From Candidatus Omnitrophota bacterium (GTDB lineage: Bacteria > Omnitrophota > Gorgyraeia > Zapsychrales > Fredricksoniimonadaceae), in the NCBI GenBank assembly GCA_037131245.1, contig JBAXRK010000001.1:152385-216384 (forward strand): a stretch of DNA of 64,000 nt, written 5' to 3'. The translations under genes and the position numbers were made by a program. Of this stretch, positions 4,301-51,300 are shown piece by piece (the first letter of the stretch is position 1; each line of letters opens with the position of its first letter). The notes under the pieces were generated by a model. The model saw nothing but the letters and a program-made list of their open reading frames with translations, was not told the DNA's origin and ran no database searches.

Positions 4301-4548
4301 TTCTTGCTGTGCAATTCCAGATAATTCTCCAGCACCACGCTCTTGGACCGCTGCACGATCAGCGTCTTGAGCATGTCTATGTACGTCTCCAGATGCCGGC
4401 CCCGCGACACCACCGAGGTCTGAAGGCTGTTGCCGATAGCGGTATGCAGGCTGTTCCGGGCAAAAACATAAAACACCCCTTCCGCGACGCCCGTAAGCAG
4501 GAGCGTGGTCGCCAGAAAATACAGCCCTATTTTATTCGCCAGTTTCAT
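1321..4548 (-). CDS. Membrane sensor histidine kinase (Cache-like ectodomain, HAMP, multiple PAS, HisKA, HATPase_c)
   Basis: 1075-aa ORF. N-terminal TM, second TM LFLILLAALLPASLMAF followed by HAMP-like DEIGDLARAFETM. H-box GLAHEINQPLGG and GTGLGLSISYGIV. 4-nt overlaps at both ends. Confidence 0.9.
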   Translation of the reverse strand: MKLANKIGLYFLATTLLLTGVAEGVFYVFARNSLHTAIGNSLQTSVVSRGRHLETYIDMLKTLIVQRSKSVVLENYLELHSKNDPGQAEALAPAETLLSRTAEASHVFQEVFLLDASGRVVASSGHESIGQDKSADPYFINARREVYVKDVYQSSTGIEAMAVSAPMVSSRTGEFLGVFVVRLSLDDLNAILRERTGLGKTGEIYLVNKDGILITPSLYFPDAVLKLKIDTLNTRKAREHLGKGTVSDDEVLPVYEDYRQNRVLGDHYYVQKMGGSVIAEIDEEEAFAPLGRLRAMLFLILLAALLPASLMAFGVSRLIVAPLDRLRAGMAIVGGGDLSYRVVSDAKDEIGDLARAFETMKENLRKTTVHAGALNEEISERNRLEASLRESEKRFLDVFYTSQDATLIIDGGRFIDCNQAAARMLGYATPGDFLDTHPSELSPALQPDGKKSFEKANEVMAQASAQGNLRFEWVHRKANGEDFSVLVTLTTITLRGRSVLHCVWADLTELKREAEALTRTQAQVAAQAAELEAALQSSRRSESVMSSMLEDNNLIREQVEQAARQTRLILESSGEGILGLDREGRHTFVNGQALKLLGFDEKEMLGVPSHPMWHHSRPGGSPYPDNECRIFKCLATGRAMFGDEVFWRKDGSSFPVEFSAHPLQDEGQTVGAVVTFRDVTERKKMVDVLKDSEARFRDLFEKAAEGIMIMSQQGKILQANKAFADMHGLTVKDVVKGTIFDLNVKRDEALKANEGVFSRIKAGEVVRFEAEHLHVSGRIVYLNVTANLIDSGKEKVVLAFHQDISESKAAEAMMQELKKTLDDSQAQLFQTSKLATLGEMATGLAHEINQPLGGISLVATVLRKSLEKKILTDEKVASGVKDIEECVKRMTKIITHIRAFARQEALKAQPMDVVETIDSAIGLLSAQLREHEVEVEKVIEPALPQILGEPFQIEQVWINAISNARDSMNAKQAEIAAGRMTLEGYRKKLVVTVARDTGTGMLAIAFADNGMGISDAHKKKAFEPFFTTKEVGKGTGLGLSISYGIVESHKGTISLDGKVGEGATLKVYLPIEGNV

Positions 4549-31404: not shown

Positions 31405-31878
31405 ATGAAAAACCATCCCAGCGAACTTCAGAGCAAGATCAACAGCCAGGGGTACCGGATCACCAAACCCCGCCAAAAGATCATTGACGCTTTAAGCCAT
31501 TCCAAGAACTGCCTGAGCGTTGATGATATTTACATGGCCATACGGGCCAAAGGAGATAGTGTCGGGGTCACCACGATCTACCGGGCGGTCGATAGCCTGG
31601 CCAAGGCCGGTATTATCAGAAAATTATCACTTATCAGTGGAAAAACCTCTTACGAGCTCATTGACCCTGAGCTTAAGCACCACCATCACCTGATCTGCCG
31701 CAGCTGCCAGCGGGTCATCGATTACTCTGACTTTATTAATGAAGAGGTACTGCTCATCAAGAAACTGGAAAAGATCGTTTCACAGACCCATCATTTTGAT
31801 ATTGAAGACCATATGCTGTCGTTTACCGGGCTTTGTCAGCTATGTCAAAAACCAGGATCAATGAATAAAGTGAGGTGA
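31405..31878 (+). CDS. fur: Fur-family metalloregulator
   Basis: wHTH (RITKPRQKIIDAL...VTTIYRAVDSL), HHHHLIC regulatory site, CRSC and CQLC structural Zn pairs. AAGGAA RBS. Confidence 0.85.
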   Translation: MKNHPSELQSKINSQGYRITKPRQKIIDALSHSKNCLSVDDIYMAIRAKGDSVGVTTIYRAVDSLAKAGIIRKLSLISGKTSYELIDPELKHHHHLICRSCQRVIDYSDFINEEVLLIKKLEKIVSQTHHFDIEDHMLSFTGLCQLCQKPGSMNKVR

Positions 31879-32098: not shown

Positions 32099-32929
32099 AT
32101 GAATAACGAGATAACCATCTTCGAAGATTACAAGATCCGCCGTATTTATGATGAGCCGACGGAAACATGGCACTTCTCCGTTGTGGACGTCATTCAAGCC
32201 TTAATTCAACAGCCTGACTACCAGACAGCCAGAAAATACTGGAATAAACTTAAAGAGCGCCTTCGTCAGGAAGGAAGTCAGTCGGTGACAAAATGTCACC
32301 AACAGAAATTGCTTGCGGCCGATGGTAAAAAGTATCTAACCGATGTCGCGACAGCGGAAATCCTTCTGCGCCTGGTTCAGTCCATCCCCAGCCCTAAAGC
32401 TGAACCGATCAAACTCTGGCTCGCCAAAGTCGGCTATGAACGCATGCAAGAAATAGCCGACCCCGCCCTTTCGCTTAACCGTGCCAGGGAAACCTGGAAA
32501 AAACACGGCCGCAGCTCTCAATGGATCCAGCAACGGATGCTGGGCCAGGAGACTCGCAACAAATTAACGGATTACTGGAAAGAGAATGATATTAACAAGC
32601 CTGACGAATTTGCCATTCTGACAAACATCATTCATCAGGAATGGGCCGAAGTCACTGTCAAAGAACACAAGGCCCTGAAGGGACTAAAAACACAGAACTT
32701 GCGCGATCATATGAACGAGGCGGAACTTATCTTTACCGCCCTTGCCGAAATGTCCAGCCGTAAGATCGCTGAAAGCGTGGAAGCCAAAGGCATGCCGGAA
32801 AATGCGCGGGCCGGCAAGAAGGGAGGCGGCATCGCCCGTAAAGCCAGGATCGAGTTAGAAACCGCCACCGGCAAGAAAGTCATTTCGGCCGGCAATTATT
32901 TGACGACGAAAGAGTTACCACGGCCGTAA
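32099..32929 (+). CDS. Bro-N domain protein (antirepressor-like)
   Basis: ITIFEDYKIRRIYDEPTETWHFSVVDVIQAL... and IQSIPSPKAEPIKLWLAKVGYERMQEI resemble the widespread Bro-N family. Visibly AT-richer than surrounding genes. The 3' end overlaps the convergent CDF-NifX gene by 15 nt. Confidence 0.7.
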   Translation: MNNEITIFEDYKIRRIYDEPTETWHFSVVDVIQALIQQPDYQTARKYWNKLKERLRQEGSQSVTKCHQQKLLAADGKKYLTDVATAEILLRLVQSIPSPKAEPIKLWLAKVGYERMQEIADPALSLNRARETWKKHGRSSQWIQQRMLGQETRNKLTDYWKENDINKPDEFAILTNIIHQEWAEVTVKEHKALKGLKTQNLRDHMNEAELIFTALAEMSSRKIAESVEAKGMPENARAGKKGGGIARKARIELETATGKKVISAGNYLTTKELPRP

Positions 32930-34009
32930 CCACTGGATACGGCTGCGGCCGAAACCGGTGGCCGCATTGGCTGAAGAAGCCATTTTCAAGCGACCGGCTT
33001 GATAATCCGCGAAGGTTGAGCCCACCGTCTGCAGCGTATCAAAATAATAGATCCTGACCCCCTGCCCTCTTAATTCCGAGAACATATGCGGTCCCACCTT
33101 CCCCGCCAGCACCACGCCGATCCGGCTCTCACGGACGATCGACCCGAGAATAATACTTTCTTCCACGTTATACATCCGGCTATTGTTAGCTCGGATCGAG
33201 GTGGTTTTTTTCTTAAGGTCGAGCAGGCAGAAATACGGCGCCCGCCCCAGCAACGTTGAGACCGGACCGTCCCACATGCCGGTTTCAGCCGGAATAAGGA
33301 TCATGTTGCGCCGCGCCAGTGTGTCCTCCACGCCGCGCGTAAAAACGAACATGATCGCAACCGCCAACGCCGCCAGCGAAAATGCCACGCGTTGTTTTGT
33401 TTCCAGAGAGACCTTGGCGCGCTCCTTTTCAAAATACTCTTTGAAGATCTGCATCGCGCCCTGGATCTGAAAGCCCCCGATCACGATCGCCCCGATCGGG
33501 TCACAGTAAACCAATCCCATGACCGCGAGAAATATCCCCAGGAACCCGAAACAAGCCGCGAAAAGATTCGTCTTGTTCTGGATCATGAACATAAATAAAT
33601 TGCTGTTCTTCGGATCGCGCTCCAGCGCTTTCGATGAGATGTAATACAAGTAGCCATTAGCCAGGATCGAAATTTTTGCGACCAACAAGGCAAAGAGTCC
33701 CGGGCGGGCCGGAATACGCGACACAATGATCGCGATATTATCCGCGCAGATCCACACTCCCGACAGGAACATGATCGCCCCGATCAGAATGCTCTGCGTC
33801 GCAAGAGAGAGCCTTTTGTCCCTGGCCCCGTGATAATTGATCCCGAACGCGAAACAATCCGAGAACGAATGCACCGCCTCAGCCACCAGCACTTTACTGC
33901 CGGTCACCAATCCCACCACCGCCTTGATCAGCGTCATACTGATGTGATAGATCAGGGACCAGGAAACAACCTTTTCCTGCTCAGCGGCATCGGCTTTTTT
34001 ACGGTTCAT
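32915..34009 (-). CDS. CDF-like membrane domain fused to a C-terminal NifX/NafY-like (FeMo-cofactor-carrier fold) domain
   Basis: Start moved to ATG 34009..34007, which overlaps the upstream TGA (ATGA). TM2-type AEAVHSFSD. No CDF cytoplasmic domain; instead an extra TM and LGRAPYFCLLD...GVVLAGKVGPHMFSELRGQGVRIYY. Confidence 0.7.
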   Translation of the reverse strand: MNRKKADAAEQEKVVSWSLIYHISMTLIKAVVGLVTGSKVLVAEAVHSFSDCFAFGINYHGARDKRLSLATQSILIGAIMFLSGVWICADNIAIIVSRIPARPGLFALLVAKISILANGYLYYISSKALERDPKNSNLFMFMIQNKTNLFAACFGFLGIFLAVMGLVYCDPIGAIVIGGFQIQGAMQIFKEYFEKERAKVSLETKQRVAFSLAALAVAIMFVFTRGVEDTLARRNMILIPAETGMWDGPVSTLLGRAPYFCLLDLKKKTTSIRANNSRMYNVEESIILGSIVRESRIGVVLAGKVGPHMFSELRGQGVRIYYFDTLQTVGSTFADYQAGRLKMASSANAATGFGRSRIQWLRPW

Positions 34010-34914
34010 TTCAATTTCCCCCGAATATGAACAAGGCACTTGCGGCATTTATCTCTTTTATCGCGCGCCGCCCCCTGCATCTGGCCGTCGCACCAGGTAT
34101 GGTCGATCTCCCAGCAATGCTTCCCATGATTGGGGAAAGACGGGCACTGCACCTGCCGCTCAGCGGGGCAATTTAAGATCTCCCAGCAATTCGACTTCAT
34201 CGTGGTCGAGCAATAAACCTTAAGGTCGCCGGTGCGCTTTTTCATCTCCAGGATCAATTTATCCCGCCCGTCCTTGCTATCAAGGTCCTTCCGGCCGATA
34301 TCCTCCAGGAACCCCTCCATGTTCTTGCAATAATCCCTGACCGCGTTAAGCAAATGCTTGGTGCGCGCGTTCACTTCCTCATCAGGCATCGCGTCGCGCC
34401 AGACCTCGAAACCGCCAAGCACGCGCCCTTTCTTATCGATCAGCGGGCCGGCGGAAACCACTATCGAATGCTCCCTGTTAATACGGTCGATCACCTTGAC
34501 CCTTTTGCCGATCACGGACTTGCGCGTTTTCATCGCCTGCTTGATCGCACAATGATTAGTGCACAGGTCGCTCTTGAAAATATCCGCGCAAACCACCTTT
34601 CCGATCGCGTCATTCAGGTTCAAGCCCGTAAAATCAAGACAGGCCGGATTCATGAACTGGATCTTCATATCCTTGTCGACCACGAAGAACGGATAGGTGG
34701 ACGCGCGTAAAATACTCACCGCGAAGGTCGCCATGTCTTCAAAATCACCGAAAGCCTTGGTCTTGGACGAAAGGAAGTCCAGGAAATCATCCTGCGCCCC
34801 ATCCTCACCCGAACCAGCCTTCTTTTTTGAACCGCGATGCTCTTCGGTGGTTTTAAGCGGCGCCTTTACCGCCCTGAGTTCACTGAGGATCTTGGCCATC
34901 CGGTCGAAGTTCAT
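34006..34914 (-). CDS. Stand-alone PAS sensor with C-terminal double CWE cysteine-rich (two-CW-like) domain
   Basis: PAS core FFVVDKDMKIQFMNPACLDFTG... with CADIFKSDLCTNHC. C-terminus NCWEILNCPAERQVQCPSFPNHGKHCWEIDHTWCDG...CRKC. Confidence 0.65.
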   Translation of the reverse strand: MNFDRMAKILSELRAVKAPLKTTEEHRGSKKKAGSGEDGAQDDFLDFLSSKTKAFGDFEDMATFAVSILRASTYPFFVVDKDMKIQFMNPACLDFTGLNLNDAIGKVVCADIFKSDLCTNHCAIKQAMKTRKSVIGKRVKVIDRINREHSIVVSAGPLIDKKGRVLGGFEVWRDAMPDEEVNARTKHLLNAVRDYCKNMEGFLEDIGRKDLDSKDGRDKLILEMKKRTGDLKVYCSTTMKSNCWEILNCPAERQVQCPSFPNHGKHCWEIDHTWCDGQMQGAARDKRDKCRKCLVHIRGKLK

Positions 34915-35820
34915 TTATTTTCCCCCAAATTCAATATAAAAATCAACACTCCCCACTTCGGCAAAAGCGCCAGTCAAAGCCATGCGCAATCGCCCCAACT
35001 CCTGCCTGCACTCGTCCACCGTCACAGGCGGACAATGCAGCGTTATCCCCAGCCAGAACTTTTTCCCCACACGCTTGAATTTCAGCGCGCTCATTCGATA
35101 TGGCGCGAAATCCCGGTGGATCAACTGTGTGACCCCATGGCGGAACACCGGGTCGGGTGAGCGGTCAAGCACCACCCTCAAATTGCTTTGCCAGTGCCCC
35201 AGCGCATCTTTAATGATGATGACGCCCACGATCAGCGCCGCGACCTTATCAACAAAAGCGAAAGCCGGCCCGAACTGCGCGACAATGATCGCCACAATGA
35301 CCGCGCCCGATGAAAAAAGGTCAGCCCCCGCGTGGCAGGCATTCGCCACCATCCCCGGGCTTTCGAGCTTTGTTCCGGCGCAAAAGTTATACCGGTACAT
35401 CATGTATGTCAGAAAGGTCGACACCAGCACGATCGGCAGAGCCATGATGTCCGGTGTTACAAAATCACGCCGCATGATCGCCAGCACATTCGAGAGCACG
35501 ATGAACAGCCCCAGTCCGATCAGGACGCTAAAAGCCGAAAGAGCCGCGATGAACTCGATCCGGGCATAGCCGTAAGGAAATTTCTCGTCCGACTTGCGCT
35601 CGACAAAAACCAGACTGACCATGATCAGAATGCTGGTCGCGACACAGGATAATGACTGCAACCCGTCCGCGACCAGGCCCGAGCTATTCGTGAACGCGCC
35701 ACCCGCCAGCTTAAGGCCCGACATGAGGACATTACCCGCCACCGTAAGCCCCAACACCCGCTGCGAACAGATCCGGCAGGCTTTAAGATTGGTTGACGCG
35801 CACATCGGCTTCTCGGTCAC
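34915..35820 (-). CDS. Cation diffusion facilitator, MamB-like paralog
   Basis: N-terminal CRIC, TM2 ADGLQSLSC, FPYGYARIEF, TM5 HAGAD, C-terminal CDF domain. 301 aa. Confidence 0.75.
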   Translation of the reverse strand: MTEKPMCASTNLKACRICSQRVLGLTVAGNVLMSGLKLAGGAFTNSSGLVADGLQSLSCVATSILIMVSLVFVERKSDEKFPYGYARIEFIAALSAFSVLIGLGLFIVLSNVLAIMRRDFVTPDIMALPIVLVSTFLTYMMYRYNFCAGTKLESPGMVANACHAGADLFSSGAVIVAIIVAQFGPAFAFVDKVAALIVGVIIIKDALGHWQSNLRVVLDRSPDPVFRHGVTQLIHRDFAPYRMSALKFKRVGKKFWLGITLHCPPVTVDECRQELGRLRMALTGAFAEVGSVDFYIEFGGK

Positions 35821-36701
35821 GCGCCCTCCTTTAATGACATCCCCAGGAACAACTCATGCGGCCTGTCGAGCTTCCTGCGCAGCGCATCTTTCACTCTTTT
35901 TCCGGTGGCTGTCACCTCATTCATGGAAGCCCCGGCGCCCACACCCAGCGTCAGCATGATCTCCAGCACATGGCCCGACCGCGACACCCGAAGAGCCTCA
36001 ACAGCCACCGACGGCTTTACCTTCATGACCAGCTTTCTGATCTCACCGGTCAGCTCTTCATCACCAGCAGCATCCATCAAACCCTTGAAAGCGGACTTCA
36101 AATAAACAATGCCATAGATGATCATGAAGAACGCGGTCAGGATCGCGCAGGCATAATCAGGCAAGGTCGCCCCGTGACGGGCGATGACCACGGTAAAAAC
36201 CGTCAGGATCGATAGCAGGAAATCCGTGCTGAGGGCCAGCGCCATATCGCGGTTATCCACCTCGGGAATATCCCATATCTTGTTCCCGCTCCAGAAGATC
36301 ATGATCAAACCACCCAGCGCTACCACCAACGAAACCCAGGCCGCCAGCATCTGCGGCGGATAAAGCGTATGAAAGAACACCATATGCCCGGTGGAATACA
36401 GCAGCATCCCTGTGCTCAACGTGATCAACAGAGAAGCCCCCAGGACAATGATAAATTCCAACTTGTCTGCATTAAAGTTAACGCGGGCGCCTCGAGCGGG
36501 ATGCATACGACCGATGCGGATCAAACTCACCACCGCGAGAAAAACCCCGAACAAAGAAAACAGCCCGGAGACCAGCAGGGTTTTTGACCCGGCCAGACCC
36601 CCAAAAACCACTTTCACTAAAAATGATGCCAGAAAAAAGTAGAACAGCCCGTAAACCGTGAACTCTTTCTTTTCTTTGGCAACATCGACCATCTTCTTCA
36701 T
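35817..36701 (-). CDS. Cation diffusion facilitator-like protein with degenerate transport-site residues
   Basis: Start moved to ATG 36701 (MKKMVDV..., AAGGGA RBS) to remove the 130-nt overlap with the upstream gene. Six TM plus a CDF C-terminal fold (LMDAAGDE...VEALRVSRSGHVLEIMLTL). TM2 has no His/Asp (VSGLFSLFG). Confidence 0.65.
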   Translation of the reverse strand: MKKMVDVAKEKKEFTVYGLFYFFLASFLVKVVFGGLAGSKTLLVSGLFSLFGVFLAVVSLIRIGRMHPARGARVNFNADKLEFIIVLGASLLITLSTGMLLYSTGHMVFFHTLYPPQMLAAWVSLVVALGGLIMIFWSGNKIWDIPEVDNRDMALALSTDFLLSILTVFTVVIARHGATLPDYACAILTAFFMIIYGIVYLKSAFKGLMDAAGDEELTGEIRKLVMKVKPSVAVEALRVSRSGHVLEIMLTLGVGAGASMNEVTATGKRVKDALRRKLDRPHELFLGMSLKEGA

Positions 36702-36712
36702 ATCATTTCCCT

Positions 36713-37426
36713 TTATATCGCCGCCGGCTTCAAGCCATTGATCTGATGGCAATTCGAACATACCCCGCGATACACATGCGGCATCTGGGTCGTATTGGCC
36801 GGGATCGTGATATCCGGCCTGACGACATGGCAGTTCTCGCACACACCGCGAAACTCATGAAGCATATTCGCGTCGCGGAAGATCGGCGGAGGCGTCACAC
36901 CCTGATTGAGCGCGATCTGTTGAAACCCGTTATTAGCCTTTGGCGCTACCGGGATCATCTGGCCGCAACGCGGGCAGCGCGTATAACCGCGGTTCCAGCA
37001 ATTGACATCATTGAATGTGAACTTGCACTGCGGACAAGTGAAGGTCCCCATCTGACGGCCCTGGCCGAAAGCCACTGGCTGCGCGGGGGGCGTCGCGTTT
37101 GGAAAACAATTCGTCACCGTTGGACAGGTCGCGCAACCCGGTGGAATAAAAGCGGCCGGCTGAGCCGGATTGGTGGTGGCGTTAGGAAAACATTGCGTCA
37201 CGGTCGGACATGTCGCGCAAGCCGGAGGAATAAAGGCCGCTTGCTGTGCCCCGTTCCCGCGCCCGACTGACTGGCCCGGCAATGGCACATTGCCACCCTT
37301 AAATAGGGCCGTGCAAAATAGCACGAATAATACCGTCACCGCGGCACCCGCCAGCCAGACATTCCTGGTGCCGGAACCGGTGCATTTCTCCCACGCTTTC
37401 TCGATCCCATCCTCATGATGCTTCAT
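36713..37426 (-). CDS. Double-magnetochrome protein with Cys-rich tandem repeat and zinc ribbon (MamT/MamP-like class)
   Basis: TM. Two copies of AAFIPP(A/G)CATCPTVT(Q/N)CFPNAT. CPQC...CPRC. HEFRGVCENCH and HVYRGVCSNCH. Confidence 0.8.
   Translation of the reverse strand: MKHHEDGIEKAWEKCTGSGTRNVWLAGAAVTVLFVLFCTALFKGGNVPLPGQSVGRGNGAQQAAFIPPACATCPTVTQCFPNATTNPAQPAAFIPPGCATCPTVTNCFPNATPPAQPVAFGQGRQMGTFTCPQCKFTFNDVNCWNRGYTRCPRCGQMIPVAPKANNGFQQIALNQGVTPPPIFRDANMLHEFRGVCENCHVVRPDITIPANTTQMPHVYRGVCSNCHQINGLKPAAI
37076..37240 (-). repeat. In-frame tandem duplication (~81 nt x2) encoding a CxxCx6C module
   Basis: aa 63-90 and 91-117 of the 237-aa protein are near-identical. Confidence 0.8.
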
Positions 37427-37444: not shown

Positions 37445-37888
37445 TTATCCCCCCGGCCGGACTCCCACCCGACCGTACACCAGCGTCTGTTGCCCGCCGC
37501 GCTCCACCGTGAACGTCACCCGTTCATCGATCCCTGTTGTCTGGACCAGATATTGAAACTGATCCTGTCCTGTCACGCTGGTCCCATTCCAGCGCTGCAG
37601 CACATCCCCTTCCTGAAGCCCAGCTTCCTCTGCCGGCGAACCGTTAAATATCCTGGATACCACTATGCCGCTGGCCGCGACCAGGTCATATTGCCGACGA
37701 AGTTCCGGTGTGAGCTCGATGGTCTCTACCCCCAGCCACACCCGGGGATCCACTGTCTTAAACCTGAAATTCCAGCCCTCGGCAAAAACCAATACGATAT
37801 AAATCAGCGCGATCAGAAGCAACCCCGCCACCATCGCCATGGACGACCCGCTGGGACCTTCTTTTAATGGGCGCGTGGTTGTGATCAT
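37445..37888 (-). CDS. Membrane-anchored single-PDZ protein
   Basis: Start moved to ATG 37888, which overlaps the upstream TGA (ATGA). TM MAMVAGLLLIALIYIVLVF. PDZ WLGVETIELTPELRRQYDL...SPAEEAGLQEGDVLQRWNG. Confidence 0.7.
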   Translation of the reverse strand: MITTTRPLKEGPSGSSMAMVAGLLLIALIYIVLVFAEGWNFRFKTVDPRVWLGVETIELTPELRRQYDLVAASGIVVSRIFNGSPAEEAGLQEGDVLQRWNGTSVTGQDQFQYLVQTTGIDERVTFTVERGGQQTLVYGRVGVRPGG

Positions 37889-38715
37889 TTGCTCCCCTTT
37901 GTGCCAACTCTGATCTTCACACTGTCGCACTTTACGCAATTAAAACACCGCACGCACACCGAACTTCCGGGATCATCGCTGATATTGATATCAACTGGAC
38001 AGTCCTGCCGACACTCCTGGCAATCCTTGCACTTCTTCGGGTCAACATCGAGCTGAACTAGGCTGTGACGGTTAAAGAATCCGAAGATCGCGCCCATCGG
38101 ACAAACCAGCTTGCAGAAAGGCCGTTTAGCAAAAACAAAGTAGGCGACGAACAAAGCCGCGATAAAGATCTTAAGAACAAATAACCAACCCAGTTTTTGG
38201 ATCGACACCGCCGGCTCACCGTACACCGGAATGGTCGGGTTCCAGATCACCCACGGCACTGCCGCTTGAATGGTCCCCATCGGGCAGAGCTTGGAGAACA
38301 TCGTTTCCTGCATAATGAACGGCAGCAGAATGACCAGAAGTCCCAGGATCAAATATCGAAGTCCGGCAAGTTTCAGCGGGATGCGGACCTTGAAGGTCTT
38401 GATCTTATAGAGCAGATCCTGAAGCAACCCGAACGGGCAAAGCCAACCGCAAGCCAAACTCCCCACCGTGATGCCGATCGCTGTCAAATACCCCGCCAGC
38501 AGATACGGGAATTTATGCATGGTCATGTAATGCTGAATGGTCCCGATAGGACATGAAAAAAATGCTGACGGGCAGCTATGGCAATTGAGGAACGGAACAC
38601 AGGAGCTCTTAAGCTCGCCCTGATAAACCTGCTTGGTCTTGAAGAACCCCAGATAAGCGTTCGTGACCACTAGCGTGATCCATTGCACCGCCTCTCTTAT
38701 TCTCTGCAAATCCAT
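37885..38715 (-). CDS. Membrane polyferredoxin, NapH/MauN-like 4Fe-4S protein (Mad6-like, tentative)
   Basis: Start moved to MDLQRIRE (ATG 38715, GGAG 7 nt upstream). CHSCPSAFFSCPIG, CGWLCPFG, CPMG, CKDCQECRQDCP, CVRCFNCVKC. Confidence 0.75.
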   Translation of the reverse strand: MDLQRIREAVQWITLVVTNAYLGFFKTKQVYQGELKSSCVPFLNCHSCPSAFFSCPIGTIQHYMTMHKFPYLLAGYLTAIGITVGSLACGWLCPFGLLQDLLYKIKTFKVRIPLKLAGLRYLILGLLVILLPFIMQETMFSKLCPMGTIQAAVPWVIWNPTIPVYGEPAVSIQKLGWLFVLKIFIAALFVAYFVFAKRPFCKLVCPMGAIFGFFNRHSLVQLDVDPKKCKDCQECRQDCPVDINISDDPGSSVCVRCFNCVKCDSVKIRVGTKGSK

Positions 38716-38719
38716 GGGA

Positions 38720-38851
38720 CTACTCCAATCCGATGCACGCCATGCACATGGTCGCGCCGTTATTCTGGGTTTCCAGCGCGTCATTCGCGCTGTCACCAAG
38801 CAGAAATAAAATAAATACCACGAACAAAACGATGATGACTTTCTTGTTCAT
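38720..38851 (-). CDS. Small membrane peptide (43 aa) with C-terminal CMAC, below ORF-track cutoff as an ATG-started unit
   Basis: MNKKVIIVLFVVFILFLLGDSANDALETQNNGATMCMACIGLE. Its ATG overlaps the upstream TGA (ATGA at 38848..38851). Its last codons supply the RBS of the next gene. Confidence 0.55.
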   Translation of the reverse strand: MNKKVIIVLFVVFILFLLGDSANDALETQNNGATMCMACIGLE

Positions 38852-39201
38852 TGGGCCTCGATCCAGGTCATGTTCTCTTTGCAGCGCGGGCATACCGGAA
38901 ATCCGGTCTTGCCGCAGGCCGGACACACAAAATTCCCGATGAACCCATTCCAGAACATCGCCACTTTACAGGTCGGGCAAAGAGGGACGCCTTTTTCCCC
39001 GCACCTCGGGCAAACCGCGCTCACATTGTGCTGGATGACTTTCATCACCACATTGCTTTTCACCAGCCCCCGCGCCGATAATGACTTGAACTTCCCTACT
39101 GAATAAGCGATGAACACAAAAACAAAAATAGCGAACAGCGCCCCCACGATCATCAGGCGGCTGCGGTCCTCATCGGCAATCTCGCGCATTTGGCCGGCCA
39201 T
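38848..39201 (-). CDS. Membrane-anchored double zinc-ribbon protein
   Basis: Start moved to ATG 39201 (TGATG overlap with the upstream stop). TM MIVGALFAIFVFVFIAY. CPRC-x7-CPTC and CPAC-x7-CPRC. Confidence 0.65.
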   Translation of the reverse strand: MAGQMREIADEDRSRLMIVGALFAIFVFVFIAYSVGKFKSLSARGLVKSNVVMKVIQHNVSAVCPRCGEKGVPLCPTCKVAMFWNGFIGNFVCPACGKTGFPVCPRCKENMTWIEAQ

Positions 39202-39908
39202 CAAAACACTCTCACTTTCGGCTTCACGCCACCGGCCGCGACCATCGGCGCGGCCACTGCCACCACTTCGTGCATCGCGCCGCCGCATTTCGGGCATTGC
39301 GCCGGCATGATCCCGTCAGCCGCTGTTTCAGAAATACGATAATCACAATCAAAGCAGATATAGAACTTGCCCTGAACGATACGGCCCAAATTCGCCTGCG
39401 TGTCAAAAGTCGCGCAAGCCACCGGCTTTTTACTCCCGGTGATCCCGAAATGCGCCGGAACATTCTCGGCGGTTAATTTCGTCAGTCCATCCGGAAAATC
39501 ATTGAGCGCCTGCCAGGCTGAGCCATGAACACCGGTATAAACCTCGATACGCGCCTGGTCAAAAACCCGGAATGGCTCAAACCCGACATTATTCCCCAGG
39601 ACCGCGTCGACCTTCATTCCGGCTATCATCTGGGCGCTGCGTAACCCGGCGGCATGCTGAGCATCCAAATATTTATTCGGTACCGCTTTATATGTTTTCT
39701 TGGCACGGTCGCAAATGATGTAGTAGGGCGCCCGGCCGAACAGATACGACACGGGACTATTGATGTCCGGTCCCGTTGCCGCGATGGCCACGATCACCGC
39801 TTTGCGTCTGCTTAAGATCACCGGATTGTCGTTCTCATAGAACGCCTGCCCGACCACCAGCGTGACGGCCGCAAAAAAAATCATTAAGAAGATCATTTCC
39901 CGGCGCAT
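39201..39908 (-). CDS. NifX/NafY-like (FeMo-cofactor-carrier fold) domain protein with C-terminal zinc ribbon
   Basis: Signal/TM. IVAIAATGPDINSPVSYLFGRAPYYIICD...VDAVLGNNVGFEPFRVFDQARIEVY. CFDC...CPKC. Confidence 0.75.
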   Translation of the reverse strand: MRREMIFLMIFFAAVTLVVGQAFYENDNPVILSRRKAVIVAIAATGPDINSPVSYLFGRAPYYIICDRAKKTYKAVPNKYLDAQHAAGLRSAQMIAGMKVDAVLGNNVGFEPFRVFDQARIEVYTGVHGSAWQALNDFPDGLTKLTAENVPAHFGITGSKKPVACATFDTQANLGRIVQGKFYICFDCDYRISETAADGIMPAQCPKCGGAMHEVVAVAAPMVAAGGVKPKVRVF

Positions 39909-40340
39909 TTATTTCGTATTCTCCTGGTCCACATGGATCTTTTTGTAATAATCGCACTTCACACAGGACTCTTTACAGTAGATCTTCTGATGACTCAAAT
40001 GCTCACGCAACGTGTAACATTTCTTGGTATCCGAAAGGAACACCACGCAGACTTTGCAATTATGGCTCTCTTTCTTTTTTGATCCCTGATGATATTCCCA
40101 GCAGCGCAGGAAATCATTCTCCATGCCCACCAGCTCCTCAGAGCGAAACGCATTGAGTCCGATCTTGTAGGTCTTAATAAAAGCGATCAGGTCCCCGCGA
40201 TGAATGCGCCGATGGCCCCCGGGTGTGCGGGTGGTCTTGAGCATTCCCTTTTTCGTCCAGTTAATGACGGAAAATCGCGTAACGTTACAGACCTTAGCCG
40301 CCTCGACCGTAGAGAAATACTCTTTCATTGTCTCCCCCAT
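39909..40340 (-). CDS. Excisionase/MerR-type HTH regulator with Cys/His-rich C-terminal domain
   Basis: YFSTVEAAKVCNVTRFSVINWTKKGMLKTTRTPGGHRRI. C-terminus CWEYHQG...HNCKVC...C...CKESCVKC. Confidence 0.7.
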   Translation of the reverse strand: MGETMKEYFSTVEAAKVCNVTRFSVINWTKKGMLKTTRTPGGHRRIHRGDLIAFIKTYKIGLNAFRSEELVGMENDFLRCWEYHQGSKKKESHNCKVCVVFLSDTKKCYTLREHLSHQKIYCKESCVKCDYYKKIHVDQENTK

Positions 40341-42377: not shown

Positions 42378-44180
42378 TTAAGGTAATAAGCTTAAAAAAA
42401 TAATATAGAACGTCGAAAGCACAAGAAAAATGATAGCGACCGGGATCCCCCGCCGGCCGTAGCTGGCAAAGGTAAGCCCTTCCTTATTCTTGAGGTCTTT
42501 CCCCATTTCTTCAACCAGCGTCTGCGAAACGATCCCCGCGCTCGCGCCTGAAATACACGCGCACGCACCGGCAATAGAGCCCAGGTTCAGCGCCCACCAC
42601 ACGACATCGGTAAAATCCGCGAACCCCGAATGCAGGACGATCGGCACCAGGAAAGCCGTGGCCGGACCAGCGTTCATGAGCGCGGTAAAGATCGCCATGG
42701 TGAACATCAGCAGGATCGGATAAAGGATCTTGTTGCCCATCGACATCGTCACCAGCGCATCAGAAACCACTTTAAGCATCCCGGAATACAGCGCGCCGCC
42801 GACGATCAAAAAGAGCGCGATAAAGAACAGCATGTCAGTGAGGCTGATCCGCTTGATCACATCCTTGGCCTTATGGTTCTCGATGGCCAGAAGCAGGAAG
42901 CCGCCGCCCAGCGCGATCGGCGCCAGATGGACCTTGAAGAACGGCAGGACCAGGAACGCCACCAGAACCGCGCCCAGAATAATAAGCACCCGCTTGATCC
43001 GGGGCCAATCCATGTGCATCTCTTCAAGCTCGCCCTCAACCTTGGCCAGGAATTCTTTTTCCAGCTTGGCGGAATGATGCTTCTGATTATGACGGAACTC
43101 GGTATACCACATATACCAGAGAAAGACGCCCAGGAAGATCGCGCACATCGGGCCCATCACGATCAAGAAATCAATAAAGGTCAGGCCCGCGGCGGACGCC
43201 ATGAGCATATTGGAGAAGTCCCCGACCGGCGTCATATTCCCGCCGATGACGGACGAAATAAGCTCGGCCACGATCACAGGGATAGGGTCGAAATTGAGCC
43301 CGCGCGCGATATAGATCGTGATCGGGATAACAACCAGAATGATCGAAATGTTGTTCACAAAAGATGACGACAAGGCGGTCACCACGCACAGCGCAAAGAC
43401 CACTTCGATCGTTTTGGCCCGGAACATCACCACGATCTTTTTCGCGCTGTATTCAAAGACGCGCAGGTCATCAAGGAATATCGCAAAGATGCTCATGCCC
43501 ATAAAGATGAAGATGGGGCTCATGTGGATGGCATCGAACGCTTCGGTTTGATTGTAAAAACCGAATGCCGTGCCGGCCAGCAGCATTAATACCGCGCCCA
43601 GCACCACACAGACCGTGCGATTGAAGAGATTAAGGAAAAGCATACCGAAGGTGATCGCCACAATGACCAGCACGACCAGGATATTTCGTCCGCTGGTGCC
43701 AAACAGGTCGACCCCGGCATTAAGCGGCAATTTCTCGCTCATCGTGAGCTTCATGCCGTTACGGGAGATCACGAACGACACCTTATCCCCCGGCTTGTTC
43801 TGCGACATCAGGAAAGATAAATGCGACGCCGACTGGATATCGATATTGTTATACTTGAGGATCACGTCCCCGCGGCGGATATCAATAAGGCGCCGGGCAT
43901 TACCTTTAGGAACATTATTGACCAGCACGCCCGCCACGATCGGCAAATTGAACTCTTTGGCGATAACCGGATTGACCGTCACGCCGTCAAACTCGATGGC
44001 ATTCGACCCGCCCGCCTGCGCCAGACGCGGCTGGCCGTGCGTGGGCATGGTGCGGCTGTCCATGAACAACGCTGTCAGCACAATGACCACAATGATAGCG
44101 ATCGCCGCTTCCATAAAAGGGAAGCTTTTAACGTGCTTGAGGTTGTCTTCCTGAATGGTCCTTCTGATATTTAACGCCAT
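42378..44180 (-). CDS. N-terminal TM + PDZ fused to an ArsB/NhaD-superfamily permease (MamN-like)
   Basis: PDZ FDGVTVNPVIAKEFNLPIVAGVLVNNVPKG...GDVILKYNN, then ~10-12 TM helices with a central soluble loop. 600 aa. Confidence 0.75.
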   Translation of the reverse strand: MALNIRRTIQEDNLKHVKSFPFMEAAIAIIVVIVLTALFMDSRTMPTHGQPRLAQAGGSNAIEFDGVTVNPVIAKEFNLPIVAGVLVNNVPKGNARRLIDIRRGDVILKYNNIDIQSASHLSFLMSQNKPGDKVSFVISRNGMKLTMSEKLPLNAGVDLFGTSGRNILVVLVIVAITFGMLFLNLFNRTVCVVLGAVLMLLAGTAFGFYNQTEAFDAIHMSPIFIFMGMSIFAIFLDDLRVFEYSAKKIVVMFRAKTIEVVFALCVVTALSSSFVNNISIILVVIPITIYIARGLNFDPIPVIVAELISSVIGGNMTPVGDFSNMLMASAAGLTFIDFLIVMGPMCAIFLGVFLWYMWYTEFRHNQKHHSAKLEKEFLAKVEGELEEMHMDWPRIKRVLIILGAVLVAFLVLPFFKVHLAPIALGGGFLLLAIENHKAKDVIKRISLTDMLFFIALFLIVGGALYSGMLKVVSDALVTMSMGNKILYPILLMFTMAIFTALMNAGPATAFLVPIVLHSGFADFTDVVWWALNLGSIAGACACISGASAGIVSQTLVEEMGKDLKNKEGLTFASYGRRGIPVAIIFLVLSTFYIIFLSLLP

Positions 44181-45872: not shown

Positions 45873-46784
45873 TTATTTCCTTGCCGCAGCCAGCGCAAGG
45901 GCCTTAGGAGTTAAATTTTCCTTACACGTGAACGCGACCGTCACTTCCTTGATCTGCGCGTATTTACGCATCAGGGCCTGACGGACTTCACGGGCGATCG
46001 CATGGCCTTCCTTGACCGTCCGTTTCGGGTCAATAATGATCTCAAGGTCGACCCAGGCATGCTGCCCCACGCGACGGGCATGGACATAATTAACGCCCAT
46101 CACCTGGCGGTACTTCATGACTTCCGCCTCGATGACCTTTTCCTTATCGCCGGGCAGGGCTTCATCGATGAGGTTCTTGAACGACTGCAACCCCAGCGTG
46201 ACCGCCGACTTGCCGATCATCAGGCCAACGAAGATCGCCGCCAGCGCGTCTATAATAGGAAAACCGATATTGGCCGCGAAAACGCCGAACAACACCGCGA
46301 TACTTGAAAGCATGTCGGAGCGGTTCTCCTGGGCATTCGCGATCATCGCCGGTGAATTCAGTTTTCTGCCCACGCAAAAGCCGTAAGACGACAAAATGAA
46401 GTTCGCCAGGATCGCGACCAAAGCCGCGAAGAACGCCGCCATGTGGGGCGCCTTGATCTCGCCGCTCACAATGACCGCGATGGCGTCGATCAGGATCATG
46501 CATGAAATACCAAAGAGCAGAATATACGCGAAAACCGCGCCGATGAATTCCGATTTGCCCAGGCCCCAGGGATATTTCTTATCATCCCGGTGGCTGGAGA
46601 GCTTGACCGTGATGATGACCATGAGCGTCGTCGCCACGTCGGTACCGCTGTGAAACCCGTCAGCCACCAGACCCTTCGACTTGGCGGCATAACCGATATA
46701 GATCTGAAAGATCGCAAGCGTCAAATTCCCAAGGAGGACGATCCAGGGAACGATCTTGCCGCATTTAACGCAACGTTCTTGCAT
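45873..46784 (-). CDS. mamB: Cation diffusion facilitator, MamB-like
   Basis: N-terminal CVKC, TM2 ADGFHSGTD, YPWGLGKSEF, TM5 NAQENRSD (compare the MamB NAWDNRSD as I recall it), CDF C-terminal fold. Confidence 0.8.
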   Translation of the reverse strand: MQERCVKCGKIVPWIVLLGNLTLAIFQIYIGYAAKSKGLVADGFHSGTDVATTLMVIITVKLSSHRDDKKYPWGLGKSEFIGAVFAYILLFGISCMILIDAIAVIVSGEIKAPHMAAFFAALVAILANFILSSYGFCVGRKLNSPAMIANAQENRSDMLSSIAVLFGVFAANIGFPIIDALAAIFVGLMIGKSAVTLGLQSFKNLIDEALPGDKEKVIEAEVMKYRQVMGVNYVHARRVGQHAWVDLEIIIDPKRTVKEGHAIAREVRQALMRKYAQIKEVTVAFTCKENLTPKALALAAARK

Positions 46785-46787
46785 AAA

Positions 46788-47687
46788 TTATTCCGCCGGA
46801 AAATCCTGAATAAAGATATTACCGATGTACTTATCTTCGCTTCTAAGCAAAGCCCGGACCGACTGATTGATGTGCTTGGCCTCAACAACACTGAGCTCGG
46901 GGCTAAGCTGCAACCCGATATCGAGTACGATCTGCCGCCCTGTCTGGCGCGCCCGAACGTGTTTGATCTTGGCGATCCCCTTTACCGTCTCGACCGTGCG
47001 GTGGATCTTCTCCAGGTACTCCTCGGGCAGGTTCGTATCAACGATGCCTTTAAGCCCGCTTTTGAGGATCTCAAAACTGGCATGCAAAACGTGTGCGCAC
47101 TCGAAGATCGCGATGACCGGGTCCACCCAGTGCAACCCCATGCGGGTCACGACCACGCCGATCGCGACCAGGAGCGATGAAATAACGTCGATCTTGTTAT
47201 GTTCCGCGTGCGCTTTTAAGGAAGGGCTGTTAAGCTCCTGCCCGCTGCAATGCGAAAATTTATAAATGAACGCGCTGATGGTGGCCGACAGGATCGCCAC
47301 GAAAAACACCACCGAGTGCTGGACCACAAAGGTGCGCTTGGCCAGAACAATGAAAGAGCTCAAGATCAGCGCCAGCGTACCCAGGATCATGATGACGCTC
47401 ATCACGACTTGCGCGATGAACTCGATCTTGCCGTAGCCGTAAGGGTAGCGGTGATCGGCCGGCTTCTTGGAATACTTGACGCCGATAATGACTACGATCG
47501 AAGAAAGAACGTCACTCAAATTACAAAGCCCGCTGCCGATGAGCGCGCGGCTGCGGCCCATGAACCCCACGAACAACTTGAACGCCGCCAGGAACAGATT
47601 CGCGATAATGCCCGCGAAGATCGTCTTGCGCGCGCAAGCCTCGCATTTCTGTGAATTCTTTTTCTTTGGCTCGTTATTTGACGACAT
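46788..47687 (-). CDS. mamM: Cation diffusion facilitator, MamM-like
   Basis: N-terminal CEAC, TM2 GSGLCNLSD, YPYGYGKIEF, TM5 HAEHNKID, CDF C-terminal fold. Immediately upstream of the MamB-like gene. Confidence 0.75.
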   Translation of the reverse strand: MSSNNEPKKKNSQKCEACARKTIFAGIIANLFLAAFKLFVGFMGRSRALIGSGLCNLSDVLSSIVVIIGVKYSKKPADHRYPYGYGKIEFIAQVVMSVIMILGTLALILSSFIVLAKRTFVVQHSVVFFVAILSATISAFIYKFSHCSGQELNSPSLKAHAEHNKIDVISSLLVAIGVVVTRMGLHWVDPVIAIFECAHVLHASFEILKSGLKGIVDTNLPEEYLEKIHRTVETVKGIAKIKHVRARQTGRQIVLDIGLQLSPELSVVEAKHINQSVRALLRSEDKYIGNIFIQDFPAE

Positions 47688-49686: not shown

Positions 49687-51300
49687 TTATTTGATCGCCA
49701 TGTGGGCGACGTTCGGATCCTGCATGCCATTATTCTGCGCGACTTCATTCTCGACGGCCTGTTGCTGCATTGGAACATTCTGCATCGCCACGGGTTGAGC
49801 CTGTACTGCCTGCGCCGGCGCGATCTGATGGCAATTGGAACAAACACCGCGATAAGCGTGCGGCATCGTCGCATTAGCGGCGATCGTGATATCAGGTTTT
49901 ACCGTATGACAATTTTCGCAAACACCCCGGAACTGGTGAGGCATCACCGCATCGCGAAAGATCGGCGGAGCACTGTTAGGCACGGGATTCGCCACCGGAG
50001 CGTTTTGGACCATGGCGATCCGCGACGCCGGATTGACCCGCTTCATGATCTGCCCGCAATTGGGACAACGCGGAAATTCATTCATGCCCTGCTCGGAATG
50101 CATCAACCAACCGCAATTGGGACATTTAAAACCATTGGTCATGTCCGGATTCGGGCTGAAAAAATTCGCCTGAGTGCCCATCATCATGGCCTGCTGACCC
50201 ATGGCCTGCTGAGCCATCGCTTGCTGAGCCATCGCTTGCTGACCGAAGGCCTGATTCTGCATCTGCATTTCCGGCTGTTCAACGAACGGGTTCACGAGAC
50301 GATTCTGATTCTGGGCCTGCATATCAAGCGCCATCGACCCGCCGCAATTCGGGCACTGTGGAAACCCATCGCCTTGCTGGCTACTTTTCATGCGCCAGTT
50401 ACAGATAGGACAAACATACGCCCGCTGGCCCCAACCGAACCAGCCGGCTTGCATTGCTCCCGCGCCCCCCTGGGCCATGGCTTGCTGTTGGGCCAACTGC
50501 TGCTGAAGGATCTGCTGCTGATACAAATAACCCGGGCCGTTGCCGTTATGAAGCATGCCGATGCCTTGAAAACCACCGGGGAGAGGACAAGTCGGTTGCT
50601 GAGCCTGCATCATATAATTCATCGGCATATTCTGCATGCCCATGCCTTGCTGCATCATATTTCCCTGCATGCCCATCGGCATATTCGCTGCCATCCCGCC
50701 GCCCATCCCCCCTACGGGGGCCATGCCTTGCATCTGCATTTGCTGTTGAACAGGAATTTGCTGGGCTTGCCCGGGCATCGGAGAGGCCGGAATTCTCGCC
50801 TGACGATATAAACTGATCACTTTCTGCGCCCGGCCCTGATACCCGCCGAACACCCTGATGCCGAACTGCGAAAGCGTATTGTAGGTCTGCTGATCCACAC
50901 TGCCGACGATGACCGCTTCCTCGCCCTTGCTGGCGATCAAATACGTCATCTGCTGGCTGGGCCCCTGGCCGAAATAAGGGTTCTTAACCACTTCCATCAA
51001 TTTCTTGTTGAGCGGATTGACGACCAGAAAATAACGGGCCTCGGACAAGGTCGGCGCGACAGGCGCCGCCAGCGAACGGCCGCCGGTCGCGATAACGATC
51101 ATCCCGCAAGCCGGGTTACCTTTGGCCGTGCCGGTCGATTCCGCCGAGAACAGGGCATATGTCCCGACGATCAAGATGAGCACGATCGCGGAAAAAATGA
51201 AGATAACGTTCAGGTCGGTATCCTTGAACCGTTCTTCGACCTTTGCCAGGATCGACTTAAGATCAATATTGAACGCGGCGCCCTCAGACTTCTTAGCCAT
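49687..51300 (-). CDS. Mosaic protein: TM + NifX/NafY-like domain + Met/Gln-rich low-complexity region + two zinc ribbons + two magnetochromes
   Basis: LSEARYFLVVN...AVIVGSVDQQTYNTLSQFGIRVF. aa 171-380 are Q/M/G-rich with QQAMAQQAMAQQAMGQQAM. CPIC..CPNC and CPNC..CPNC. HQFRGVCENCH and HAYRGVCSNCH. Confidence 0.8.
   Translation of the reverse strand: MAKKSEGAAFNIDLKSILAKVEERFKDTDLNVIFIFSAIVLILIVGTYALFSAESTGTAKGNPACGMIVIATGGRSLAAPVAPTLSEARYFLVVNPLNKKLMEVVKNPYFGQGPSQQMTYLIASKGEEAVIVGSVDQQTYNTLSQFGIRVFGGYQGRAQKVISLYRQARIPASPMPGQAQQIPVQQQMQMQGMAPVGGMGGGMAANMPMGMQGNMMQQGMGMQNMPMNYMMQAQQPTCPLPGGFQGIGMLHNGNGPGYLYQQQILQQQLAQQQAMAQGGAGAMQAGWFGWGQRAYVCPICNWRMKSSQQGDGFPQCPNCGGSMALDMQAQNQNRLVNPFVEQPEMQMQNQAFGQQAMAQQAMAQQAMGQQAMMMGTQANFFSPNPDMTNGFKCPNCGWLMHSEQGMNEFPRCPNCGQIMKRVNPASRIAMVQNAPVANPVPNSAPPIFRDAVMPHQFRGVCENCHTVKPDITIAANATMPHAYRGVCSNCHQIAPAQAVQAQPVAMQNVPMQQQAVENEVAQNNGMQDPNVAHMAIK

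Follow-up and report, generated by a model that had tools for sequence, protein, structure and literature searches.

A cation diffusion facilitator with a predicted seventh helix and a most likely outward-facing NifX-like domain in an Omnitrophota magnetosome gene cluster

Introduction

Cation diffusion facilitators (CDFs) have six helices and place both termini in the cytoplasm, and the magnetosome CDFs MamM and MamB are interdependent. CDFs without the usual C-terminal domain (CTD) exist naturally (e.g., MmCDF3 of Maricaulis maris, which ends after the sixth transmembrane [TM] helix, TM6); to our knowledge, none has been described with a seventh helix and an outward-facing domain. The step by which iron from MamB/MamM-type transporters enters an ordered magnetosome crystal is open, especially in deep-branching uncultured lineages. 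Here, we describe a gene from a 64,000-nucleotide stretch of an Omnitrophota genome (GenBank assembly GCA_037131245.1, contig JBAXRK010000001.1, positions 152,385 to 216,384 of the forward strand; hereafter, the window). The window contains a full magnetosome gene cluster (MGC), and the gene of interest, which joins a CDF membrane domain to a NifX-like domain, closes the second of its mam-like units (Table 1).

The closest functional precedent, by analogy, is the pair FmpA and FmpB of Desulfovibrio magneticus RS-1. FmpA has a TM helix and FmpB a signal peptide, both contain "denitrogenase Fe-Mo" domains and show enrichment on early magnetosomes, and truncations that remove these domains result in fewer, smaller, and misshapen crystals (PMC12748827, PMC4287615). 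Compared by description, FmpA/FmpB (DMR_41090/DMR_41100) resemble the protein studied here in having a Nitro_FeMo-Co domain behind a TM anchor or signal peptide and in being encoded in a magnetosome cluster. They differ in that their domain is joined to PDZ, protease-like, or magnetochrome modules in a single-pass or secreted chain, whereas here it is joined to a multi-pass CDF core; Pfam shows just Cation_efflux and Nitro_FeMo-Co on this chain, and none of those other modules.

Three other groups of proteins bear comparison. MamB and MamM (NF033616, NF033615) share the six-helix CDF core, the HxxxD motif on TM2, and the location in a magnetosome cluster, but the window protein has QxxxN instead of (H/D/E)xxxD on TM5, a TM2–TM3 loop that is ∼16 residues shorter, no CTD, and, in addition, an extra TM helix, a NifX-like domain, and a tryptophan-bearing tail. 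The small proteins MTH1175 (1eo1), TM1290 (1rdu), TM1816 (1o13/1t3v), PH0822 (2yx6), and the orange protein ORP (2wfb) have the same fold as its C-terminal domain and an FGRAxYF-type motif in the first strand (E = 5e-16 to 2e-9 for a profile of the protein family described below; Foldseek TM-scores 0.72–0.89). Proteins of the MTH1175/TM1290/ORP type are soluble and cytoplasmic; in contrast, the domain studied here is membrane-tethered, predicted to be extracytoplasmic, and followed by an extra conserved tail, and the residue before the motif Gly is Leu in 35 of 36 family members, unlike in the small proteins. Finally, canonical CDF+ZT_dimer+Nitro_FeMo-Co fusions (e.g., P0071, P0148, P0158, and P0111) also combine a CDF and a NifX-like domain in one chain. 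In this commoner class, HxxxD is retained on TM2 as well as on TM5, together with the FPYGY loop and the CTD. Because they have no hydrophobic segment after TM6, their NifX domain is predicted to be cytoplasmic; they also have no such tail.

Both modules, and the presence of an exported NifX-like domain on magnetosomes, are already known; what is new is that the domain is joined to a CDF core, that the TM5 site reads QxxxN, and that the topology has seven helices. A full-text search for literature linking magnetosomes with NifX, NifB, or the iron–molybdenum cofactor returned solely the RS-1 FmpA/FmpB work. The gene is unmentioned in the Omnitrophota and Nitrospirota MGC surveys searched, and the published MGC gene list for Ca. 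Magnetomonas plexicatena mentions no such gene. Public annotation of the family is limited to "cation transporter" or "NifX family protein", and the gene has probably been missed in current MGC annotation.

Domain content and predicted fold

The open reading frame spans 32915–34048 (−; 377 aa), but we prefer the start at 34009 to that at 34048 given the ATG/TGA overlap with the preceding gene, the purine-rich GGGGAA 6 nt upstream, and the public annotation of 364 aa. The public protein (P0001; 364 aa, on a 247-kb contig) is 100% identical and is annotated as "cation transporter [Candidatus Omnitrophota bacterium]". The start/stop overlap suggests that translation is coupled to that of the preceding PAS/two-CW gene, and a 4-nt overlap recurs in a related locus (L001, genes 4187–5143 and 5140–6297).

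An initial sequence-only reading of this stretch had described the product as a CDF TM domain followed by an extra TM helix and, in place of the CDF cytoplasmic domain, a NifX/NafY-like fold. The motifs that it quoted are present in the translation (AEAVHSFSD at residues 43–51, QNKTN at 144–148, and LGRAPYF from 254), and so is the extra helix, as a hydrophobic stretch at residues 206–224. The assignment of the membrane part to the CDF family is borne out by several lines of evidence. Pfam Cation_efflux (PF01545) matches over two stretches of the protein (E = 3e-16, 60.2 bits; cutoff 26.6), a profile built from 19 relatives matches YiiP/FieF (E = 2e-4), and the only significant Foldseek matches of the membrane part are CDF structures (YiiP, ZnT7, ZnT1), with a TM-score of 0.58 over ∼200 columns for YiiP (8f6h). 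A non-CDF membrane family could be ruled out, given that Pfam finds Cation_efflux alone there and that all of the significant Foldseek matches to the membrane part are CDFs. The score for TIGR01297 is 48.3 bits, under the cutoff of 82.35. True membership in MamB or MamM was also rejected: CDF_MamB is the best NCBIfam match, at 50.1 bits, and CDF_MamM scores 32 bits, against an equivalog cutoff of 350.

As the reading had also stated, the CTD is absent. There is no Pfam ZT_dimer match to the protein at E ≤ 1, and neither the window protein (P0001) nor its relative P0005 is matched by a profile made from the CTDs of 55 canonical CDFs, with P0071 scoring 51 bits against the same profile. The C-terminal fold does belong to the NifX superfamily, although to the MTH1175/TM1290/ORP subgroup and not to NifX/NafY proper. 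Pfam Nitro_FeMo-Co (PF02579) matches with E = 1.3e-7 (32.3 bits; gathering score 26.3), and the profile of 19 relatives separately finds TM1290 (1rdu, 5e-16), MTH1175 (1eo1, 6e-15), ORP (2wfb, 2e-10), and TM1816. An AlphaFold model computed from the alignment of these relatives (pLDDT 83.7, pTM 0.75) has helices at residues 3–36, 39–64, 69–97, 105–131, 136–163, 169–195, and 198–233, an alpha/beta domain at 236–337, and a low-confidence tail. In Foldseek, the C-terminal domain superposes on ORP (2wfb) with a TM-score of 0.89 and a root-mean-square deviation (rmsd) of 1.5 Å, and on TM1290 with a TM-score of 0.88.

A rare and conserved family

One alternative is that the fusion reflects two genes joined by a frameshift or misassembly. 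Such an error would have to have linked a truncated CDF gene to a TM-anchored NifX gene, and the architecture does resemble a CDF gene fused to a gene like the one at 39201–39908 in the same window. However, 36 full-length relatives (∼30%–66% identical; from NCBI, ENA, JGI, and Logan) share the architecture in an uninterrupted reading frame, and they come from many independent assemblies and sources, so the fusion is evolutionary rather than technical, and we regard the chance of an artifact as negligible.

Both Pfam domains are present in every one of the 19 clusters at 90% identity (32%–100% identity with the window protein). When 1.84 billion representatives were searched exhaustively with a profile, 22 full-length clusters at 50% identity scored E < 1e-94, after which the matches fell off steeply; the family is rare and conserved. 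Named sources are Omnitrophota, Nitrospirales (Ca. Magnetomonas plexicatena, P0018), Bdellovibrionales, Bacteriovoracaceae, SAR324, "Deltaproteobacteria", Syntrophales, and metagenome-assembled genomes (MAGs) labeled Geobacteraceae.

The seventh helix and the side of the membrane

The segment that separates the CDF core from the NifX-like domain is, with a mean hydropathy of 1.88, the most hydrophobic one in the protein, and it is found in all 36 members. In the model, a 2-residue turn separates the helix that contains it (residues 198–233) from TM6, and the NifX-like domain begins 3 residues past the end of this helix. Lys+Arg adds up to 10.9 over the segments predicted to be cytoplasmic, against 1.6 over the loops predicted to lie outside. 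Since the CDF core ends in the cytoplasm and a seventh helix follows TM6, the NifX-like domain is most likely on the noncytoplasmic side, either in the magnetosome lumen or in the periplasm, as judged from the sequence and the model.

Two relatives that retain a CTD are informative. P0046 (465 aa) has, in order, a CDF core with an H..D/Q..N site, a CTD, an extra TM helix, a NifX-like domain, and an FG..R.L.PW tail, and the fragment P0065 has a CTD followed by the extra TM helix, the NifX domain, and the same tail. The CTD profile scores 28.8 bits for P0046 and 52.8 bits for P0065, compared with 5.1 for the best of 1000 shuffles. As the helix of P0046 is inserted after the cytoplasmic CTD, its NifX domain is predicted to be on the opposite side. 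A hydrophobic segment after TM6 was detected in the family and in P0046, but in none of 14 canonical CDF+CTD+NifX proteins.

The nearest NifX domains outside of the family also point outward. They are anchored by a TM helix or preceded by a signal peptide (P0125, 82 bits to the family NifX profile; P0162, 81 bits; and the product of 39201–39908 in the window, 58 bits), whereas the cytoplasmic CDF+CTD+NifX class is only distantly related, at 40–50 bits compared with 76–82 bits for TM-anchored forms. A further NifX-like protein in the window, FmpB-like and encoded at 49687–51300, scores 30.7 bits. It has a TM anchor, the NifX-like domain, two Zn ribbons, and two magnetochrome CXXCH motifs but no further TM helix, along with long Met/Gln-rich low-complexity stretches. 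Covalent attachment of c-type heme is extracytoplasmic, and because the CXXCH hemes share a chain with a single TM helix, the NifX-like domain of this protein should be outside the cytoplasm. The NifX/MTH1175 fold, known from cytoplasmic cofactor carriers, would then be used repeatedly on the membrane's outer side in magnetosome clusters, with three such proteins in this window.

These observations bear on the function first suggested for the protein, in which a cytoplasmic NifX-like domain takes the place of the CTD, senses or delivers an iron(-sulfur) species, and gates the transporter. The existence of the separate CDF+CTD+NifX class, with its domain in the cytoplasm (by Pfam, P0071, P0148, P0158, and P0111), makes this idea reasonable in general, as the 14 proteins without a hydrophobic segment after TM6 indicate that a CDF with a NifX domain on the cis side is plausible. 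Cytoplasmic HGD-D/BcrAD Fe-S enzymes also recur near family members. However, a strongly hydrophobic 19-residue helix intervenes between TM6 and the domain in 36 of 36 members, P0046 retains a CTD and still has a helix ahead of its NifX domain (in the order TM domain, CTD, TM helix, NifX), the closest NifX relatives are exported or TM-anchored, and the domain is without conserved Cys/His for cluster binding. We consider a cytoplasmic sensor quite improbable. As to the side of the helix bundle on which the domain sits, the large rmsd (23–26 Å) of its Foldseek alignment onto CDF CTDs is suggestive at most.

With one class of CDF-NifX fusion predicted for each membrane side, sequence comparison indicates that a CDF has been fused to this fold at least two times independently. 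We infer from this Rosetta-stone-type link that the fold handles the cargo of the CDF.

The window itself contains a hint at the origin of the fusion. Over its linker and first strand (RRKAVIVAIAATGPDINSPVSYLFGRAPYY), the product of 39201–39908 runs collinear with the junction between TM7 and the NifX-like domain of the fusion protein, which suggests that the latter arose by fusion of a CDF gene to a gene of this kind.

The C-terminal tail, SAN...GFGRS.xxWLxPW, is restricted to proteins that have the extra TM helix, namely the family, P0046, and P0065; P0071 and P0148 lack it. Its tryptophans are nearly invariant (W360 in 35 of 36 members and W364 in all), and pLDDT is <50 at residues 352–364. 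The tail may bind a partner or the outer side of the core; that it serves as a PDZ ligand is speculation.

The transport site

To evaluate the transport site, the membrane-part profile of the family was aligned to Shewanella YiiP, with conservation counted over the 36 full-length members. The TM2 half of site A aligns with D51-x3-D55 of YiiP and fits the (H/D)xxxD pattern, with D51 conserved in all members and H47 in 30. On TM5, where Q144 and N148 align with H159 and D163, the pattern is lost, and this had been called a degenerate site. That description does not hold, as QNKTN is not the product of drift: 34 of 36 members have Q144, and the same count applies to N145 and to N148, and the site is therefore better regarded as a conserved amide version of the His/Asp pair. 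P0046 also carries Q-x3-N on TM5. The suggestion that transport could be altered or lost is nevertheless a reasonable one, given that the TM5 His/Asp are replaced by Gln/Asn.

The conserved (F)PYG..K/R.E motif in the TM2–TM3 loop (site B in YiiP) is missing from the family, which has a 16-residue gap opposite PADHDHRYGHGKAEP of YiiP; the loop is retained in the other CDFs of the window and in P0071 and P0148. In the alignment, an N-terminal C...CxxC motif and a Cys ending TM4 are found in most family members and in the MamB/M-like genes of the window, but not in the generic CDF-NifX proteins P0071 and P0148. These shared Cys features suggest that the family has a MamB/M origin.

Given the amide residues, it is possible, if on the whole unlikely, that the protein no longer transports anything and that its CDF core is an anchor or a dimerization partner of the neighboring MamB/MamM-like CDFs, tethering the NifX domain at the exit of the active protomer. 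Asn substitutions for site-A Asp in ZnT1 (D47N/D255N) and ZnT4 (D150N/D281N) neutralize the site in solved structures, and these mutants are transport deficient. Loss of the TM2–TM3 loop and the CTD would fit the same explanation, as would the two CDF genes immediately upstream in a conserved operon and the interdependence of MamM and MamB. However, the retention of five polar residues within the membrane in 30–36 of 36 members is more than one would expect of an anchor alone, and the sites of the adjacent unit-2 CDFs are more degenerate (Q..C/H..D and F..G/A..D). Further, several members have no CDF gene nearby, and CDF dimers depend heavily on the CTD, which is absent here.

It should be noted that the window copy is unusual among its relatives at the N terminus, which is ∼20 residues shorter than in the closest of them. 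Residues 1–13 (33971–34009, −) are without the C-x(8-9)-C-x2-C motif, with ADAAEQEK where relatives have ACxxCQxK, and position 127 is Lys (Cys in 31 of 36 relatives).

A possible role in iron handling

The interpretation toward which we lean, although by no great measure, combines sequence and model evidence with the analogy to RS-1. The protein would be a MamB/M-derived, seven-helix protein with an outward FmpA/FmpB-type domain, whose intramembrane site still binds or conducts a cation and which holds or passes on iron at an early stage. Its core would be a paralog of the MamB/MamM lineage, rebuilt into a seven-helix protein, most likely when a mamB/M-like gene was fused by read-through to a TM-anchored NifX gene downstream of it and the CTD was then lost. 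That the membrane domain still handles a cation is suggested by the strict conservation of its polar intramembrane residues. The cation bound or conducted by the H/D/Q/N(/N) site would most plausibly be Fe2+, presumably with weaker binding and altered proton coupling, and it would be released directly beneath the protein's own NifX-like domain. At the luminal face, this domain could then receive or hold iron (or some small species of it) while biomineralization is at an early stage, as proposed here by comparison with FmpA/FmpB. The protein probably links iron passage to iron handling at the site of the crystal. Because it joins a MamB/M-derived core to an FmpA/FmpB-type domain, the family is a testable candidate for the point of iron hand-off.

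Several observations count against this interpretation. About two Lys/Arg residues lie just after TM7, mildly disfavoring an outside location of the domain. Replacement of His/Asp by Gln/Asn on TM5 may abolish transport and not simply modify it, and the window copy is without the N-terminal C...CxxC motif and the Cys127 that most relatives carry. No Cys or His in the NifX-like domain is invariant across family members, and the pI of the domain varies from 4.8 to 11.3, so no ligand can be named; the Fe-S cofactor binding originally envisaged for it is accordingly unsupported, and no nif genes were found, either in the window or in the related loci that were read. Lastly, no magnetosome genes are found among the readable neighbors of P0013/L002/L003/L053, P0014/L056, P0019, and P0033/L092, and the neighborhood of P0032/L091 is ambiguous in this respect, so the role of the family need not be restricted to magnetosomes.

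A more ambitious version, which we think rather doubtful, is that transporter and domain form one machine. The luminal domain would capture exiting Fe2+ and build polynuclear Fe-O or Fe-S species that seed magnetite or greigite, under redox control by HGD-D/BcrAD and NapH-like proteins. If true, mineral nucleation would be coupled to a transporter in a single module, and the fold of the nitrogenase cofactor carriers would have acquired a new task outside the cytoplasm.

The magnetosome gene cluster in the window

Unit 1 of the cluster encodes MamE, a PDZ protein, a NifX-magnetochrome protein, MamP, MamM-like and MamB-like CDFs, MamA, MamQ, PDZ-MamN, and MamO-Cter/TauE. Unit 2 comprises, in order, genes for a helix-turn-helix (HTH) protein, a TM-NifX-Zn ribbon protein, a NapH-like protein, a PDZ protein, a magnetochrome protein, two divergent CDFs, the PAS/two-CW protein, and the fusion protein. 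The placement of the fusion gene at the end of the second mam-like unit was thus read correctly from the start, and this order is conserved in L001/P0005, L059, L066, and L068. A strong terminator-like hairpin (40420–40396) precedes unit 2; the promoter/terminator scan of the window was otherwise at chance level. A mad-like region at 10–23 kb includes genes for FeoB, DtxR-FeoA, HEAT proteins, and an actin-like protein.

Table 1. Coordinates of the fusion gene, its parts, and related features (window positions unless a locus is named)
Feature	Positions	Strand	Evidence or remarks
Whole coding sequence, 364 aa + stop	32915..34009	-	From N to C terminus: CDF membrane domain, then the seventh TM helix, the NifX-like domain, and the Trp tail
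CDF six-helix membrane domain, residues 15-195	33425..33967	-	Pfam, family profile vs. YiiP, Foldseek
TM2 half of site A, H47-S-F-S-D51	33857..33871	-	Aligned to YiiP D51-x3-D55
TM5 half of site A, amide form, Q144-N-K-T-N148	33566..33580	-	Aligned to YiiP H159, D163
Predicted seventh TM helix QRVAFSLAALAVAIMFVFT, residues 206-224	33338..33394	-	Part of model helix 198-233 (36 residues)
NifX-superfamily domain (Nitro_FeMo-Co, MTH1175/TM1290/ORP-type), residues 236-345	32975..33304	-	Pfam, profile, Foldseek
Conserved C-terminal tail SAN...GFGRS.xxWLxPW, residues 346-364	32918..32974	-	Conservation
ATGA start/stop overlap with upstream PAS/two-CW gene	34006..34009	-	Direct sequence reading
PAS + two-CW (Cys/Trp-rich) protein	34006..34914	-	Pfam PAS 3.9e-11; two_CW_domain 37.8 bits (cutoff 35)
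Divergent MamB-like CDF, unit 2	34915..35820	-	CDF_MamB 139 bits; site A Q..C (TM2), H..D (TM5)
Divergent MamM-like CDF with CTD, unit 2	35817..36842	-	CDF_MamM 84 bits, ZT_dimer 21 bits; site A F..G, A..D
Magnetochrome protein (2 x MCR), unit 2	36713..37426	-	Pfam MCR 3.7e-10
PDZ protein, unit 2	37445..37939	-	Pfam PDZ_2 5.3e-10
NapH-like polyferredoxin membrane protein	37885..38799	-	Pfam Fer4_5 1.5e-14; NCBIfam napH 3e-15
Second NifX-like protein, 235 aa, N-terminal TM, C-terminal CxxC...CxxC ribbon	39201..39908	-	Pfam Nitro_FeMo-Co 1.5e-15
Excisionase/MerR-type HTH gene	39909-40340	-	Precedes 39201-39908 at the opening of unit 2
MamB-like CDF, unit 1	45873-46784		Site A: TM2 H..D, TM5 E..D
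MamM-like CDF, unit 1	46788-47687		Site A: TM2 C..D, TM5 H..D
Third NifX-like protein, 537 aa, FmpB-like	49687..51300	-	Pfam MCR 1.8e-14, Nitro_FeMo-Co 26.1 bits (cutoff 26.3)
HGD-D/BcrAD contexts	L064 68-2154; L093 7035-9926; L001 7146-14038; P0019 contig		

The PAS/two-CW gene is directly upstream of the family member also in L001, L059, L066, and L068, and a weaker homolog is near the member in L065. Its product could act in the cytoplasm as a partner that senses redox state or metal. The pair formed by the HTH and TM-NifX genes likewise precedes the operon in the P0005 contig.

Overall, there are five CDF-family genes in the cluster, three of them with altered transport sites; the unit-1 pair (45873–47687) is near-canonical. 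Another transporter fused to a luminal domain is encoded at 42378–44180 (−), where a PDZ domain is joined to the N terminus of a MamN-like (CitMHS/ArsB-type) transporter (NCBIfam MamN, 258 bits).

Two genes on the opposite strand lie past the 3′ end of unit 2. A Bro-N domain gene (phage/antirepressor-type; 32099–32929, +) is convergent with the fusion gene and overlaps its last 15 nt. It sits between the magnetosome operon and a Fur-family regulator gene and, having no counterpart in the syntenic loci, resembles an insertion. The Fur gene (31405–31878, +) is ∼1 kb past the 3′ end of the fusion gene, and a Fur gene of 63% identity is directly upstream of the family member in L054 (1568–2083) and L060 (820–1335). 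This proximity hints at iron-responsive control.

Neighborhoods of the relatives

Members of the family elsewhere have a variety of neighbors. In L054, L060, and L061, they are beside PDZ, Fur, and Mad-like HEAT genes; in L065, beside ApbE and a MamQ-like gene; in L067, beside FeoB and DtxR-FeoA; and in L093, beside a trypsin-like protease, HGD-D, and a NapH-like gene. In L094, the member is inside a complete MGC, between mad28/29-like and mamP/M/B-like genes. The expectation that such fusions might be confined to MGCs was not upheld, as members in MAGs labeled Geobacteraceae, Bdellovibrionales, and Bacteriovoracaceae have unrelated contexts. The family is enriched in MGCs, yet not confined to them by adjacency.

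These exceptions raise the alternative that the protein serves general metal handling in the envelope of anaerobes, acting, for example, on Mn2+ or on an ORP-type thiometallate, and was recruited by some magnetosome clusters. Members that are 32%–45% identical sit among unrelated genes (in the MAGs just listed and in L056), the best structural match of the domain is to ORP, which has a Mo-Cu cluster, and a cation that is harder, or otherwise different, might be accommodated by a site A in which amides accompany a single carboxylate. Nonetheless, we find this alternative improbable, because most members with a readable context are within or near mam/mad-type genes, the named sources are mostly phyla known for magnetotactic bacteria (with "non-MGC" judged from adjacent genes), and the rarity of the family (22 clusters in 1.84 billion representatives) fits a specialized trait.

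Some neighbors recur. Genes for HGD-D (2-hydroxyacyl-CoA dehydratase/double-cubane-type) and a BcrAD_BadFG ATPase adjoin members in four independent contexts (Table 1), and an AIRS+AIRS_C+CMD (SelD-like) gene recurs in two contexts, once beside selA and selB; none of the three kinds of gene is in the 64-kb window.

Other features were seen in individual clusters. In L094, an MGC of another lineage, the member is directly preceded by a gene for a 101-aa protein (9629–9934; Pfam PF28196, "Magnetosome_regulatory") and is followed by a magnetochrome gene that overlaps the 3′ end of the member. At the MamP position of another complete MGC (L057, 6709–11259) is P0050, a 1516-aa protein with a TM anchor, two PDZ domains, and four NifX-like domains. 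It has no magnetochrome, and it also contains repeated acidic DDEDDDEEQSGYKG...PPQGKYDP segments, several CxxC...CxxC ribbons, and PTAGM repeats.

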